Source: a virus | Reading direction: 5' to 3' (one strand) | Length of the DNA: 64,000 nucleotides | IMG/VR virus record: IMGVR_UViG_3300013137_000015 | Coordinates: 1 to 64,000 of that record | Shown here: in pieces, positions 8,081-63,294 of the stretch | Position numbering within the stretch: position 1 is the first letter of the stretch | Layout: each line of letters opens with the position of its first letter | Program-made: the position numbers and the translations under genes | Notes under the pieces: model-generated | What the model was told of the DNA's origin: nothing | What the model saw: the letters and a program-made list of their open reading frames with translations, nothing else | Database searches by the model: none

Positions 8081-8108
8081 TAAAATCCACAAGAAATTGT
8101 GGATTTTT
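8081..8108. terminator. Bidirectional intrinsic terminator
   Basis: AAAATCCACAA-GAAA-TTGTGGATTTT between convergent genes. Confidence 0.75.
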
Positions 8109-8845
8109 TAATTTATAGGATTAAATTCATATTTGTTTTTTATATAATTTTTAAATTTATATAAATTTTCTTTAATCTTTGGAATTAGTTTAACCAATTC
8201 TTCTACTGTTAAATTATTTTCACTTATTTTAAATACTTTACTAAAATAAGCATCTTCTTTATCTGGTTTGCCGTATAAAAGTTTGTCTAACTTTTTTAAA
8301 ACATTATCACATTCTTCATCTGATATTTCTACACTACCATCAAATCTTTTAGTACTTTTTATTCCACCTAAATCTGCCATATTTGCGCTAATTCTCGTTG
8401 TCGTTATAGAAGGACTAAAAAACAATTTAAATTTATCTTTTTCATATTCAAGTATTTCATCATCTAACATATGAACTTTGATCGAAAATTCTATCTTAGT
8501 ACTATAATCATCATCTAAACCAGGAAATACAATAATTTTATTTTTTCTAAAATTTAATACTTCATATTCATATGTGTTATATTCATTTAATACAAAAGTT
8601 TTTACTTCTGGTATTTCTTTTATTAAAATTTTATACAAATATTCTAATATTCCATGTCTATCATATCTATTGTGTTCTATATGATTGATCGCATTATTTA
8701 AATCAAAAGAATTTCCAGCATATAAACCATATTCAAATTTATTTTTATATGGTTCTAATTCAACCATCTTTTTAAAATCTGGTGGCAATCCTTTACCTTT
8801 TAATTCTTCTGTATCAAAATATTCAAATGATTTAATGTATTTCAT
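8108..8845 (-). CDS. Hypothetical protein with the shared N-terminal leader
   Basis: Starts MKYIKSFEYF; late-type box at 8851-8861. Confidence 0.7.
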   Translation of the reverse strand: MKYIKSFEYFDTEELKGKGLPPDFKKMVELEPYKNKFEYGLYAGNSFDLNNAINHIEHNRYDRHGILEYLYKILIKEIPEVKTFVLNEYNTYEYEVLNFRKNKIIVFPGLDDDYSTKIEFSIKVHMLDDEILEYEKDKFKLFFSPSITTTRISANMADLGGIKSTKRFDGSVEISDEECDNVLKKLDKLLYGKPDKEDAYFSKVFKISENNLTVEELVKLIPKIKENLYKFKNYIKNKYEFNPIN

Positions 8846-8870
8846 ATTAGTATATATTAAATAAAAATAA

Positions 8871-8898
8871 AAAAATCCACAATTTCTTGTGGATTTTA
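8871..8898 (-). terminator. Terminator after the tail tube gene; exact reverse complement of 8081-8108
   Basis: AAAAATCCACAATTTCTTGTGGATTTTA. Confidence 0.75.
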
Positions 8899-8917
8899 TA
8901 AATTGTTTATTATTTGC

Positions 8918-9475
8918 TTAATAATACATGTCCTCATAGTAATCTGCAACGAATTTAGCAGTTAATGTAGCAATTTCATTTGAAGACCAATCTAAATCTT
9001 CCCAACCACTAAAATTAGTAATCTGAGCGTTATGATAGGTAACTCTTCTTATGATATGACCTTCTTTATCATGAGCGTGTACAATAATATCAGAAATAAT
9101 ATTTTTCTTATAATGTACAGAACCATCTTCATTATTCCATACTAAATCATACCAATCTTTCATCATTCTCCAAGTCATAACTTGATAATTTTCATTAACA
9201 TTCATGTTAAAGTTAATATCAACTGATGTATCAGTTTTATCAGGAAATGTCATGAACAATCTGGTCGAATATTTAAATCTTTGAGATTGTGTAGCAATAT
9301 CAGGATAAGTTGGAAATTTAACAGTCGTTGTATTTTCAAGCAATATGGTTTCATAACCAGGATGAATAGCTTGAATAGCTGGTGGTAATATAATTACTAC
9401 CTCATATAAATTTTTATAAACTGGTTCCCAAATTTTATTGTGAGAACTTATGTTCGTAAAATGTGGTAAAGGCAT
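8918..9475 (-). CDS. Tail tube protein (T4 gp19-like)
   Basis: 185 aa with WRMMKDWYDLV and a C-terminal LDWSSNEIATLTAKFVADYY; downstream of the sheath gene. Confidence 0.8.
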   Translation of the reverse strand: MPLPHFTNISSHNKIWEPVYKNLYEVVIILPPAIQAIHPGYETILLENTTTVKFPTYPDIATQSQRFKYSTRLFMTFPDKTDTSVDINFNMNVNENYQVMTWRMMKDWYDLVWNNEDGSVHYKKNIISDIIVHAHDKEGHIIRRVTYHNAQITNFSGWEDLDWSSNEIATLTAKFVADYYEDMYY

Positions 9476-61104: not shown

Positions 61105-61142
61105 ATTATGAAATTCTATAAAAACACACAAGATTATAAAAT

Positions 61143-61170
61143 AAAAAAGACCTCAAATGAGGTCTTTTTT
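61143..61170. terminator. Bidirectional terminator
   Basis: AAAAAAGACCTCA-AA-TGAGGTCTTTTTT. Confidence 0.75.
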
Positions 61171-61490
61171 TATTCAATACTATCCATAAAATTTTTATAC
61201 GAATTCATTCGGAATTTCTCATTTTCAATATCAAAGAATATTGTTTGTGCATTAACTTCTTTCATATCCACAAAATAAGCTACAGATTTTCCATCTTTCT
61301 TAATAGTTTCAACATCACCTGGAGATTCCATAACAAATGATAATTTTTGCATTATTCCTTCCGCATCAGAAGGTTTTGAATATGTACTTATAATATCAAT
61401 CAATTCTTCTGAGTATTCGTTATAATATTTTACAATTAACTCATTTAATTTGTTATTATTGTAGGCTTCGTATTGTCTTATATATTTCAT
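61170..61490 (-). CDS. Leader-bearing hypothetical protein
   Basis: MKYIRQYE. Confidence 0.65.
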   Translation of the reverse strand: MKYIRQYEAYNNNKLNELIVKYYNEYSEELIDIISTYSKPSDAEGIMQKLSFVMESPGDVETIKKDGKSVAYFVDMKEVNAQTIFFDIENEKFRMNSYKNFMDSIE

Positions 61491-62398
61491 AATCTGTTAT
61501 TCTTTTGTCTTATTTTTTTACCTGTTTTCTTTTCTAATTTTTGAATGAATTTGAATGATAATCTATCATTTATAAACAAACATGGGCTATCTGTCCAACA
61601 TTCGTTATAACTATTAATTGATATTTTATCTATATGTTGCTTCCAATTTCCTTGAACTGATTCATTATATATTTCTTGCCAACTTAACAATCTAAAATTG
61701 TTCAATGTTGGTGACATCATCATTCTTATTTTTTTGAAAAGTTTACCATTTTCTAAAATTTTAGATAATAATTCATATTGTCTATTATTATTTGGTATTT
61801 CTATATAATCATCTAATGATTTTATTTCATTTTTAAATATTTTAAAATTCTTATCATTTAGTTCTTCTTTAGTTTGGTCTTTGTATATATTTGCAAGAAT
61901 ATTAAAAAAATTATCAATATCATATGAAAATCCTAAATATTCACTTGTTCCCTTTTTGAAAGCTTGAAAAATATCAGATGCTGGTGCTATTCCCCACATC
62001 GAACCGTCAATAGGTATAACAATATATTCTTCATCACCAATTTGTTTTTTACCAAGTGAACAAATAAAAGATTTTGTTCTTTTTGGAAATAATTTCCATT
62101 CTGGAAGATTATCTAACATTAATGTATAATGATTTGAATTGTCTCTTGACCATCTTTTAACAGGTTTACTATAATAAATATCTAATAATTTATTGTTATC
62201 ATCACCATCATTTGATGTCATTGTTATACCTCTCACCATTCTAAAAGGATGATTAATAAAATCTTGACAATTCTTTATTGCGAAATTAACAGCTTTATCA
62301 ATTTTCATTTCTTCAGCCGCTTTTAGAAAACGATTAACTGTTTTCTTTTCTCTCTTTCTCCAAATGCTTGTGTCTTCAAATTGTTGTAAATATTTCAT
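61487..62398 (-). CDS. Leader-bearing paralog (PKRxKSFICS family)
   Basis: SRDNSNHYTLMLDN..FPKRTKSFICS..VIPIDGSMWG. Confidence 0.75.
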   Translation of the reverse strand: MKYLQQFEDTSIWRKREKKTVNRFLKAAEEMKIDKAVNFAIKNCQDFINHPFRMVRGITMTSNDGDDNNKLLDIYYSKPVKRWSRDNSNHYTLMLDNLPEWKLFPKRTKSFICSLGKKQIGDEEYIVIPIDGSMWGIAPASDIFQAFKKGTSEYLGFSYDIDNFFNILANIYKDQTKEELNDKNFKIFKNEIKSLDDYIEIPNNNRQYELLSKILENGKLFKKIRMMMSPTLNNFRLLSWQEIYNESVQGNWKQHIDKISINSYNECWTDSPCLFINDRLSFKFIQKLEKKTGKKIRQKNNRL

Positions 62399-63294
62399 TA
62401 TATTAATTCATTCATTTTTCCATTTGATTTAAGCTTTTCTAACAATGGTATTTTTTGCATAGTATTATGTTGTCCTTGTATAAATAAACAAGTTGATTCT
62501 GACCATATTTCATTTCTTGTATTATGAATTCCATATTTTCCTCTTTGATATAACTGTTGTAAATTTAATAATTTAAATCTGTTAATTTCTGGTGAAAATA
62601 TATGTAATAATTTTTTCCAAGCATTTTTTGACATAAAATTGATAAAATCTTCTTCATAATCTATATCATCTTCTCCTATATATTTAACCTCAACACCGTG
62701 TCTATTATTTTTAAATTCTTTCAACTTTTTTTCTATCTCATCTATACCCTTATGCAAATCTTCATAATTTGTTTGGCTCAATTCTACATTAAATTTTTTA
62801 GAAATATCAAGTATTCTATCAACAAAATTATCAGCTGCTTCTGTCATCCAACCAGCGGCATCCATACCATTAATAAATGAATCATATATATCTACTTCAT
62901 TACAAACGCCCCAAATAGAATTATCATTTGGTATAACAACAAATGCGTTACCATTCATATTAGAATATAACAAAGAACAAATAAAAGATTTACTTCTCTT
63001 TGGATAATCTTTCCATTCTGGTGCATTATCCATAATTAAAGTATAATAATTTTCACAATCTCTTGAAATTCTATCTACTGGTTTAGAATAAAAACAATTT
63101 TCAGTTGTTTGAATTCTTCTTCCTATTTTTACTGGATATTCTAACCATTCATTACAATTTTTTATAACATAATCAAAAGCTTCATCTTCGGTTAATTTGA
63201 CCATTGATTTTACGAACCTATTTTTTACATCTAAAGTATTAGGGATTCTTTTTTCATCATATACAAAATATTCATATTTATTTAGATATTTCAT
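62398..63294 (-). CDS. Leader-bearing paralog (PKRxKSFICS family)
   Basis: SRDCENYYTLIMDN..YPKRSKSFICS..VIPNDNSIWG. Confidence 0.75.
   Translation of the reverse strand: MKYLNKYEYFVYDEKRIPNTLDVKNRFVKSMVKLTEDEAFDYVIKNCNEWLEYPVKIGRRIQTTENCFYSKPVDRISRDCENYYTLIMDNAPEWKDYPKRSKSFICSLLYSNMNGNAFVVIPNDNSIWGVCNEVDIYDSFINGMDAAGWMTEAADNFVDRILDISKKFNVELSQTNYEDLHKGIDEIEKKLKEFKNNRHGVEVKYIGEDDIDYEEDFINFMSKNAWKKLLHIFSPEINRFKLLNLQQLYQRGKYGIHNTRNEIWSESTCLFIQGQHNTMQKIPLLEKLKSNGKMNELI

Follow-up and report, generated by a model that had tools for sequence, protein, structure and literature searches.

A short N-terminal leader shared by unrelated proteins of a Mahaphage-type megaphage: a candidate capsid targeting sequence

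Introduction

Why should two dozen proteins of one virus, most of them unrelated to each other, begin with the same short peptide? The question is raised by a 64,000-nucleotide stretch of viral DNA (positions 1 to 64,000 of IMG/VR record IMGVR_UViG_3300013137_000015; hereafter the window), which is the first 64 kb of one contig of 72,002 bp with a GC content of 26%. Open reading frame (ORF) calling under translation table 11 gave 78 non-overlapping ORFs across the whole contig, and no recoding of stop codons was needed, the coding density being 0.93 (93%). Twenty-four of the 78 ORFs, 18 inside the window and six (g069 to g074) past it, start with a leader of 8–13 aa, here called the tag, whose long and short forms align as one motif, M-K-x-[LI]-K-x-[YFW]-[NEK]-x-F-(I)-N-E. 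With the leaders trimmed, the 24 proteins fall into 22 families that BLAST does not relate to each other, g033/g034 and g065/g066 being the only paralogous pairs (Table 1).

A sequence-only reading of the window had noticed the tag, likened it to the capsid targeting sequence (CTS) of phage T4, and proposed that it loads enzymes into the phage head. Each of the 17 N-termini that it quoted was found at the start given for it, and there is one further complete tagged gene, g044 (52 aa, 40214, plus strand). The reading had also counted six leader-only stumps; three intergenic stumps lie in the window (35535, 36998, and 37110, all on the plus strand) and a fourth lies outside it at contig position 67882 (plus strand), so its count was not reached. 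The shared N-terminus itself is confirmed as real and far above chance. We put at roughly 0.6 the probability that the leader, judged from its sequence, is a head-loading propeptide of the T4 CTS type that is cut after its Glu.

The Shared N-Terminus Exceeds Chance and Composition

A regular expression written after the fact matched 22 of the 78 N-termini, compared with 4 of 360 internal methionines and 144 of 20209 arbitrary positions (0.7%). When N-terminal 16-mers were compared pairwise without any model (the initial Met being dropped), 23 similar pairs were found, compared with 1 among internal 16-mers of the same proteins. We trained a leader hidden Markov model (HMM) of 16 positions on 22 leaders of the contig alone and applied it to an independent genome, LR756501 (735 kb), with 1021 ORF calls, 3763 internal-Met windows, and 1021 shuffled N-termini. 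At a threshold of at least 8 bits the HMM recovered 83 of the 1021 N-termini, 13 of the internal-Met windows, and 3 of the shuffled N-termini; at a threshold of at least 6 bits the numbers were 119, 46, and 13. A genome-wide scan against shuffled controls was among the checks named by the sequence-only reading, and the excess is clear. Tag-bearing loci of two other phages, LR756500 and LR745206, gave 5 of 38 and 5 of 45 N-termini at 8 bits or more, and their leaders are near-identical to those of the contig.

The leader codons are AT-rich (Lys, Asn, Tyr, Phe, Ile, Glu), and Lys is a frequent second residue in many genomes, which would suit an origin as a by-product of AT-rich gene starts or of selection on translation initiation in a host poor in Shine-Dalgarno sequences. 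However, shuffled N-termini of the same composition gave the low count reported above, and no excess at 8 bits or more was seen in the control genomes Lak-C1 (400 kb, with TAG read as sense; 25.7% GC; 5 of 444 N-termini, compared with 6 after shuffling), PTm1 (29.7% GC; 2 of 295, compared with 2), and MaF61 (37.2% GC; 2 of 191, compared with 1). The number of similar pairs was 284 versus 30 in LR756501, and 109 versus 55, 18 versus 14, and 15 versus 8 in Lak-C1, PTm1, and MaF61, respectively. PTm1 and MaF61 are both cultured, and our search for cultured relatives that carry the tag found it in neither; a literature search on PTm1 turned up no virion proteomics relevant to it. The structural genes, presumably the most highly expressed, are untagged as well: on the contig and in LR756501, the tag was absent from sheath, tube, portal, capsid, endolysin, sigma, chaperone, and endonuclease proteins. 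The sequence-only reading had already listed tdk, sigma, Clp, RuvC, tail, and endonuclease genes as untagged, and we likewise find no tag on tdk, sigma, the ClpB-like genes, sheath, tube, and the HNH endonucleases, nor on DnaJ and the endolysin.

Synonymous codons at the conserved Phe, Tyr, and Glu residues of the leader are used much as in the genome at large (TTT 61% compared with 67%, TAT 69% compared with 64%, and GAA 82% compared with 82%). Because codon use at the conserved residues equals genome-wide use, selection on the leader acts on the peptide and not on the DNA or mRNA. On the strength of the shuffles, the AT-rich control genomes, and the codon usage, we rejected a cause in composition or translation context, which is extremely improbable; AT-rich start contexts, named by the sequence-only reading as the finding that would speak against its proposal, do not explain the frequency of the motif.

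The Leader Stands Ahead of Unrelated Domains

Pfam and PHROGs searches of the tagged contig proteins identified a DeoC-type aldolase, a NUDIX hydrolase, an S-adenosylmethionine (SAM)-dependent methyltransferase, an NT5C/HAD nucleotidase, and a nucleotidyltransferase, together with a weak AAA match, a match to a BRCT region, and about 15 proteins without an assigned function. These are labels that the sequence-only reading had proposed; its "NDT-like" and "ART-like" labels were not reproduced by either database. In LR756501 we searched Pfam with 118 of the 119 proteins that score at least 6 bits (the remaining one crosses a locus border), and 18 of the 118 had a match at E ≤ 1e-4, of which 11 were clear matches above the curated cut-off. 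Among these 11 are PPK2, GNAT, DeoC, the dephospho-CoA kinase CoaE, radical SAM, a TPM phosphatase, and two methyltransferases; one further match of the 11 is a cytochrome c whose apparent leader is really a signal peptide.

The recognizable domain starts right behind the tag. The NUDIX domain of g048 begins at residue 20, the methyltransferase domain of g046 near residue 34, and the P-loop of the LR756501 CoaE at residue 14, immediately behind a 12-residue leader. An AF2 model of the aldolase g055 (51 sequences, mean pLDDT 87.7) has a TIM barrel from about residue 21 with pLDDT above 90, preceded by residues 1–20 at pLDDT 57–61, in which residues 6–15 form a separate helix outside the barrel. 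Among the 120 best database homologs of g055, some of them on contigs 438–617 kb long, 103 carry the tag (at least 6 bits), followed by a linker that varies in length and sequence and then by the conserved core, and the homologs without it are mostly gene calls that apparently begin at an internal Met.

Eight tagged proteins had matches at E ≤ 1e-5 in the ORF sets of four other genomes, seven of them in LR756501. The full-length LR756501 homologs (of g019, g034, g046, g055, and g056; 32–49% identity) are tagged in five of five cases, as is a short match to g073, while the match to g031 is the C-terminal domain of an untagged protein. A search of Lak-C1, PTm1, and MaF61 for leaderless orthologs of tagged proteins gave none, the one match being that of the NUDIX domain of g048 in MaF61. 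To judge from these sequences, the tag is portable between unrelated folds and specific to the clade. We also considered whether the NUDIX protein is a virion protein, as a PHROG label of "portal protein" would have it; the label led back to MaF61 ORF123, whose sole annotation is that of a putative NUDIX hydrolase, and it is therefore no evidence for a NUDIX protein in the virion.

Recombination at a conserved gene-start module might leave a leader of this kind as a functionless remnant of descent or of cassette shuffling. The four leader-only stumps and the tandem leader of g032 speak of recombination or decay at leaders, tagged genes are clustered (18 adjacent tagged pairs in LR756501, compared with 6.7 expected), and the tag has been lost from g067, an untagged paralog of g065 and g066 in the same unit. 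Stumps, double leader, and clustering mark the leaders as sites where genes are made and lost. On the other hand, synonymous positions within the leader vary as freely as those outside it, DNA identity not being maintained, and the peptide persists in all five full-length LR756501 homologs and, despite the variable linkers, in the 103 DeoC homologs. Because the pattern is kept across diverged homologs, the leader peptide appears to be under purifying selection, and we consider a functionless remnant improbable.

Two observations concern the form of the leaders. Past the window, g069 has nine additional residues ahead of its leader, which together with the double leader of g032 suggests duplication or recombination at leaders. 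The nucleotidyltransferase g017, which was outside the training set, has a variant N-terminus that ends in Asp instead of Glu and is possibly a 25th tagged member.

The Leader Resembles the T4 Capsid Targeting Sequence

The internal head proteins of T4 are described as all entering the prohead core by means of a CTS of 10–20 residues that is later removed by gp21; the protease cuts after Glu at sites such as ITE and LTE, and the CTS is able to load foreign proteins (PMC5694885, PMC3012670). We applied the contig-trained HMM to 271 ORF calls of T4 (AF158101), taking the identities of the internal proteins (Ip) from the annotation of the record. IpI (73591-73878), IpIII (65834-66415), and IpII (65416-65718) scored 6.8, 6.2, and 5.8 bits and ranked 6, 7, and 9 of 271; the scores are modest, but the hypergeometric probability that all three fall in the top nine by chance is 2.6e-5. 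The ranking upholds the likeness to the T4 CTS that the sequence-only reading had claimed. The N-termini of IpII and IpIII, M-K-T-Y-Q-E-F-I-A-E-A, have the same skeleton as that of g039. A 54-aa hypothetical T4 protein, gp61.1 (AF158101 18966-19130, minus strand), begins with M-K-T-F-K-E-F-I-K-E.

Every leader on the contig ends in or contains Glu, and the residue that follows this Glu is Ala in 23% of leaders, compared with a background of 3.9% (a six-fold enrichment), and Ala, Ser, or Gly in 47%, compared with 18%. Conserved among the group's capsid proteins is an [MIL]-x-E with Asn or Ser as the next residue, which aligns with I-F-E-N of the T4 gp23 propeptide. The enrichment of Ala after the leader Glu and the site in the capsid proteins fit a common protease site.

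In both T4 (IpI–III, and Alt with its short propeptide) and the megaphages, a short N-terminal leader with the common pattern M-K-x-aromatic-x-x-F-I-x-E is attached to unrelated proteins, and the tag-bearing relatives have a T4-type protease, a scaffold, and a gp23-like capsid protein. The systems differ in that T4 has a handful of carriers, whereas 24 of the 78 contig genes and about a tenth of the 735-kb genome are tagged; in that the megaphage set is acidic and includes metabolic enzymes; in that the relatives' protease is fused to a scaffold with about 12 tandem 14-residue repeats that have a leader-like core; and in that the L/I-x-E rule of T4 cleavage is followed by 11 of 24 leaders. The giant phages phiKZ and SPN3US, as described in PMC5694885, load about 50 different proteins into the head, cut them after Glu with a gp21-related protease (gp175/gp245), and have ejection or inner-body proteins whose propeptides are thought to be CTS-like. 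As characterized in that account, however, their propeptides are mostly longer than 100 residues, have no common short consensus, and are cut at the motif A/S/G-x-E (PMC5694885), and these phages belong to another lineage with other hosts. We found no description of such leaders in megaphages in the published literature, a search that did not cover the supplements of huge-phage papers. Encapsulin cargo-loading peptides, too, are short conserved peptides on unrelated enzymes and send them into an HK97-fold shell, but they are usually C-terminal and bind the shell protein itself, no protease cleaves them off, and the shell is non-viral.

Tag-Bearing Relatives Encode a Protease Fused to a Repetitive Scaffold

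Pfam and PHROGs searches with the 78 contig ORFs found no capsid, portal, protease, or terminase gene, and the head machinery was examined in relatives. In LR756501 the head genes stand in the T4 order: portal (phrog_213, 1.7e-66), protease-scaffold, and gp23-like capsid protein (PF07068, 82.9 bits). The protease-scaffold has 807 aa, of which the first 250 or so match the head maturation protease (phrog_207, 4.9e-27); the match to PF03420 is 24.1 bits, below the 27-bit cut-off, and the protease domain gave no match at E ≤ 1 when searched against PDB sequences. A His and a Ser are invariant among five protease homologs. Protease, scaffold, and gp23-type capsid protein are present in the tag-bearing LR756501, LR745206, and LR756500.

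The LR756501 protease domain is followed by about 12 repeats in tandem, each of 14 residues, Y-S-E-Y-I-A-E-N-L-D-K-S-I-x. The same repeats occur in LR745206, and a degenerate version occurs in LR756500. The untagged genomes lack them: Lak-C1 has an acidic low-complexity stretch, PTm1 has different repeats, and MaF61 has a 1404-aa "putative prohead scaffold" rich in L/M-N-E. Tag and repeats thus occur together in three genomes and neither occurs in three others, a contrast between one clade and its outgroups that probably amounts to a single evolutionary event. The LR756501 proteome (228,952 aa) contains 121 occurrences of a reduced core, [YFW]xx[FYW][ILV]xE; 51 of them fall within the first 11 residues of a protein (5.9 expected), and 14 fall within the protease-scaffold, 12 of these at an exact 14-residue period.

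A Model for Head Loading and the Points against It

In the proposed mechanism, the tagged proteins would be made along with the structural proteins. The leader, amphipathic over its 8–13 residues with hydrophobic side chains at i, i+3, and i+6/7 and a terminal Glu, would dock on the core of the prohead, where in this clade scaffold and head protease form one fusion protein. A protease of the T4 gp21 type (S77-like) would then remove the leader by cutting after its Glu, and the mature cargo would stay in the head and leave it with the DNA. Core binding, cleavage, packaging, and injection are all inferred, and the anti-defense arsenal to which the sequence-only reading assigned the cargo is speculation. 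A more specific version, possible but on balance doubtful, is that the tag imitates one repeat of the protease-fused scaffold, so that about a tenth of the phage proteins (more than 100 species, metabolic enzymes included) would co-assemble with the prohead core and be freed by its built-in protease, and the virion would deliver an enzyme kit.

Several points weigh against head loading. The scale, 24 of 78 contig genes and roughly 8–12% of LR756501 ORFs, is unprecedented for a CTS, and it is not obvious why a capsid should deliver housekeeping-type enzymes such as DeoC, CoaE, PPK2, and radical SAM proteins. The median pI of the tagged proteins is more acidic than that of the untagged ones (5.3 compared with 5.9 in LR756501 and 5.4 compared with 7.9 on the contig), whereas the internal proteins of T4 are basic. 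Three T4 proteins that outscore the Ip proteins with the HMM, MobB, gp61.1 (8.9 bits), and GoF, are not known to be packaged. The residue three before the Glu is Leu or Ile, as the T4 rule demands, in only 11 of the 24 leaders, and the others have Val, Phe, or Tyr (6 leaders) or a polar residue (7 leaders, all short forms MKY[LI]xx[YF]E). The contig itself lacks head genes, and the connection to protease and scaffold comes from relatives, at a sheath identity of 48% with the contig. The reduced core was written after both leader and scaffold sequences had been viewed, and the repeats, as copies of one unit, amount to about one observation. The full leader HMM fails to single out the LR756501 scaffold (best score −2.4 bits), and a contig-trained 7-mer position-specific scoring matrix (PSSM) fails too, scoring the repeats at 3–9.6 bits and placing one window in its top 200; because both fail, the scaffold link is one of a reduced hydrophobic-plus-Glu pattern. 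Finally, the promoter box described below is not exclusive to the tag, since 60% of untagged LR756501 genes also stand in box-headed units, and its being "late" is itself inferred from neighboring genes.

Some of these properties would suit a reader of the leader other than the prohead: the phage chaperones (DnaK, DnaJ, or ClpB-like), a compartment in the cytoplasm for assembly or replication, or a protease whose cut activates the proteins with no packaging involved. The leader is a hydrophobic amphipathic helix with basic flanks that many partners could bind; a ClpB-like ATPase and DnaJ are encoded on the contig and Hsp70 in LR756501; and a cytoplasmic role fits a large, acidic, and partly metabolic set of proteins better than a role as capsid cargo does. 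However, Lak-C1 has Hsp70, DnaJ, and a ClpB-type ATPase and yet no tag, and LR756500 is tagged but has one DnaJ and neither Hsp70 nor a ClpB-type ATPase; because these genes do not track the tag, the idea of a chaperone tag is weakened. Another reader also leaves unexplained the invariant terminal Glu with the small residue after it, the match to the T4 CTS, and the core common to leader and scaffold repeats. We consider it unlikely.

If head loading were true, no other virus particle would come close to the largest known phages in the diversity of its protein cargo. For phages beyond the reach of culture, that cargo could be read from metagenomes alone by a simple sequence rule, and the action of megaphages in the first minutes of infection would become directly approachable. 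The leader would also be a second, independently evolved short capsid-loading tag to set beside the CTS of T4, which serves as a tool in phage engineering. For annotation, about a tenth of the ORFs in these genomes, most of them without known function, could be assigned to a single functional category. Should the leader turn out to be something other than a capsid tag, roughly one tenth of a viral proteome would still bear an address label in need of an explanation.

A Presumed Promoter Box of Structural Genes Also Heads Most Units with Tagged Genes

An [AT]ATATATA box lies 32–41 nt upstream of the sheath gene, the tube gene, g050, and g062 on the contig, and the same box precedes the sheath, tube, portal, protease, and capsid genes of LR756501. 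In LR756501, the box is found no more than 100 nt ahead of 42 of 83 tagged genes, compared with 175 of 866 untagged genes (odds ratio 4.0, p = 1e-8), and by a co-directional walk 94% of tagged and 60% of untagged genes belong to a box-headed unit. On the contig, 22 of 24 tagged and 34 of 54 untagged genes are in such units (p = 0.013), and the box stands within 100 nt of 10 of 24 tagged and 13 of 54 untagged genes, a difference that is not significant (p = 0.18). The sequence-only reading had placed many tagged genes behind a late box, and the tag is tied to a box that structural genes have too, presumably a late promoter.

Ahead of g007, g019, and g033, the box is just 13–15 nt from the ATG. 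Because the distance is 32–41 nt in the structural genes, this implies that the mRNAs of these three genes, as predicted from the box positions, have very short 5' leaders or none.

By eye, we noticed boxes of another kind, T-A-T-C-T-T-T-G, upstream of the untagged genes g013, g020, and g042, which a stricter two-box regular expression had missed. We take them to resemble the Bacteroidetes −7 promoter element, and they would be in keeping with an early class of genes and a host among the Bacteroidetes.

Features of the Contig and Its Relatives

The features discussed above are collected in Table 1.

Table 1. Tagged genes, leader-only stumps, promoter boxes, and other features of the contig. 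Positions are those of the window and continue past its end for contig features.
Feature	Position	Strand	Length (aa)	N-terminal leader	Remarks
g007	8108..8845	-	245	MKYIKSFE	22.8 bits; ATATATA box 8851-8858, 13 nt upstream
Box, tube gene	9509-9516				[AT]ATATATA
g010	11346-15239	-	1297		Tail sheath
Box, sheath gene	15267..15274	-			35 nt upstream; instance of the presumed late promoter
Box, g013	upstream of 17089				T-A-T-C-T-T-T-G
g014 to g016	17336-21060	+	87, 390, 747		Split ClpB-like ATPase with intervening g015
g017	21371..22462	+	363	MTIQEFNSFIND	RlaP-type nucleotidyltransferase; variant N-terminus, 13 bits
g019	22889..23575	-	228	MRTLKTYNQLSE	Box 23582-23589; LR756501 homolog tagged
Box, g020	upstream of 23692				T-A-T-C-T-T-T-G
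g031	29371..30261	-	296 (from leader Met)	MRTIKNWNQFNE	27.3 bits; box 30294-30301
g032	30445..31494	-	349		Tandem double leader (Met residues at 31494 and 31464)
g033	31623..32840	-	405	MNKILKYKLFE	C-terminal NT5C/HAD 5'-nucleotidase domain; box 32848-32855; paralog of g034
g034	32840..34234	-	464	MKHLNKYKLFE	Nucleotidyltransferase domain; LR756501 homolog tagged
Leader-only stump	35535..35579	+	14	MKYLETFE...	Own ATATATA box 35504-35511
g038	35742..36668	+	308	MKTLQNWNQFNE	26.3 bits; matches C-terminal (BRCT-bearing) region of NAD-ligase PHROG
g039	36678..36995	+	105	MKRFNNFINE	
Leader-only stump	36998..37075	+	25	MKTIKNFKQFE...	20.4 bits
Leader-only stump	37110..37211	+	33	MKTTFNSFLNE...	
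Box, g042	upstream of 38073				T-A-T-C-T-T-T-G
g043	38994..40217	+	407	MKKFYTFVNE	Weak AAA ATPase match; box 38962-38969 heads unit g043-g046
g044	40214..40372	+	52	MKNLKTYEGFINE	26.2 bits
g046	40780..41403	+	207	MKNYKNFIKE	SAM-dependent methyltransferase; LR756501 homolog tagged
g048	42123..42584	-	153	MKHLITRYFTFE	NUDIX hydrolase; unit headed by 1460-aa g050
Box, g050	47281-47288				[AT]ATATATA
g055	48482..49357	+	291	MKLKKYNQFINE	DeoC-type aldolase
g056	49373..50278	+	301	MKVLKTYNQFNE	LR756501 homolog tagged
Box, g062	59629-59636				[AT]ATATATA
g063	59728..61104	+	458	MKNLFDYKDFINE	Box 59693-59700
g064	61170..61490	-	106	MKYIRQYE	Short form
g065	61487..62398	-	303	MKYLQQFE	Short form; paralog of g066 and of untagged g067
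g066	62398..63294	-	298	MKYLNKYE	Short form; box 63321-63328
g067	63291-64079 (contig)	-			No leader; 31–35% identity to g065/g066
Leader-only stump	67882 (contig)	+			Past the window

Among the other contig genes, Pfam and PHROGs identify a myovirus tail sheath (g010), a tube and a baseplate-like protein, several HNH homing endonucleases, a sigma factor, a thymidine kinase, DnaJ, an endolysin, and a ClpB-like ATPase that is broken up by an endonuclease-like ORF. The best tblastn matches of the sheath are all uncultured phage records: LR756501 and LR756503 (735 kb; 48% identity over 100% of the query), LR756502, LR745206, and LR756504 (about 635 kb; 47–51% over 62–70%), LR756500 (462 kb; 35% over 58%), and Lak Prevotella megaphages (about 540 kb; 30% over 49%). 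Al-Shayeb et al. describe genomes of 634–735 kb together with Lak as the "Mahaphage" clade and predict Bacteroidetes hosts (PMC7162821). Because the sheath matches fall in genomes of this clade, the contig is, to judge from its sheath, a piece of a Mahaphage-type megaphage.

The sheath is about twice the usual length; PHROG sheath matches are limited to residues 944–1283 or so, and the long N-terminal part is common to the 635–735-kb phages. In the split ClpB-like gene, g014 corresponds to positions 164–224 of phrog_4871 and g016 to positions 225–758, and g015 between them has a C-terminus similar to that of the HNH endonuclease g003, so that the gene looks as if it had been interrupted by a mobile endonuclease. 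In Lak-C1, including 400 kb of MK250029, reading TAG as sense raised the coding density from 0.55 to 0.82–0.91, in agreement with the reported recoding in Lak phages.

The tagged proteins of LR756501 are longer than the others (median 209 compared with 140 aa). A second recurrent motif in that genome, D-P-Y-G-E-E-x-W, occurs 106 times (for example at L011:5133-5426 and 619760-620383) and had no occurrence in the contig, Lak-C1, PTm1, or MaF61. It often stands at the extreme C-terminus or directly behind the leader, and one 207-aa LR756501 protein combines it with three scaffold-like repeats.

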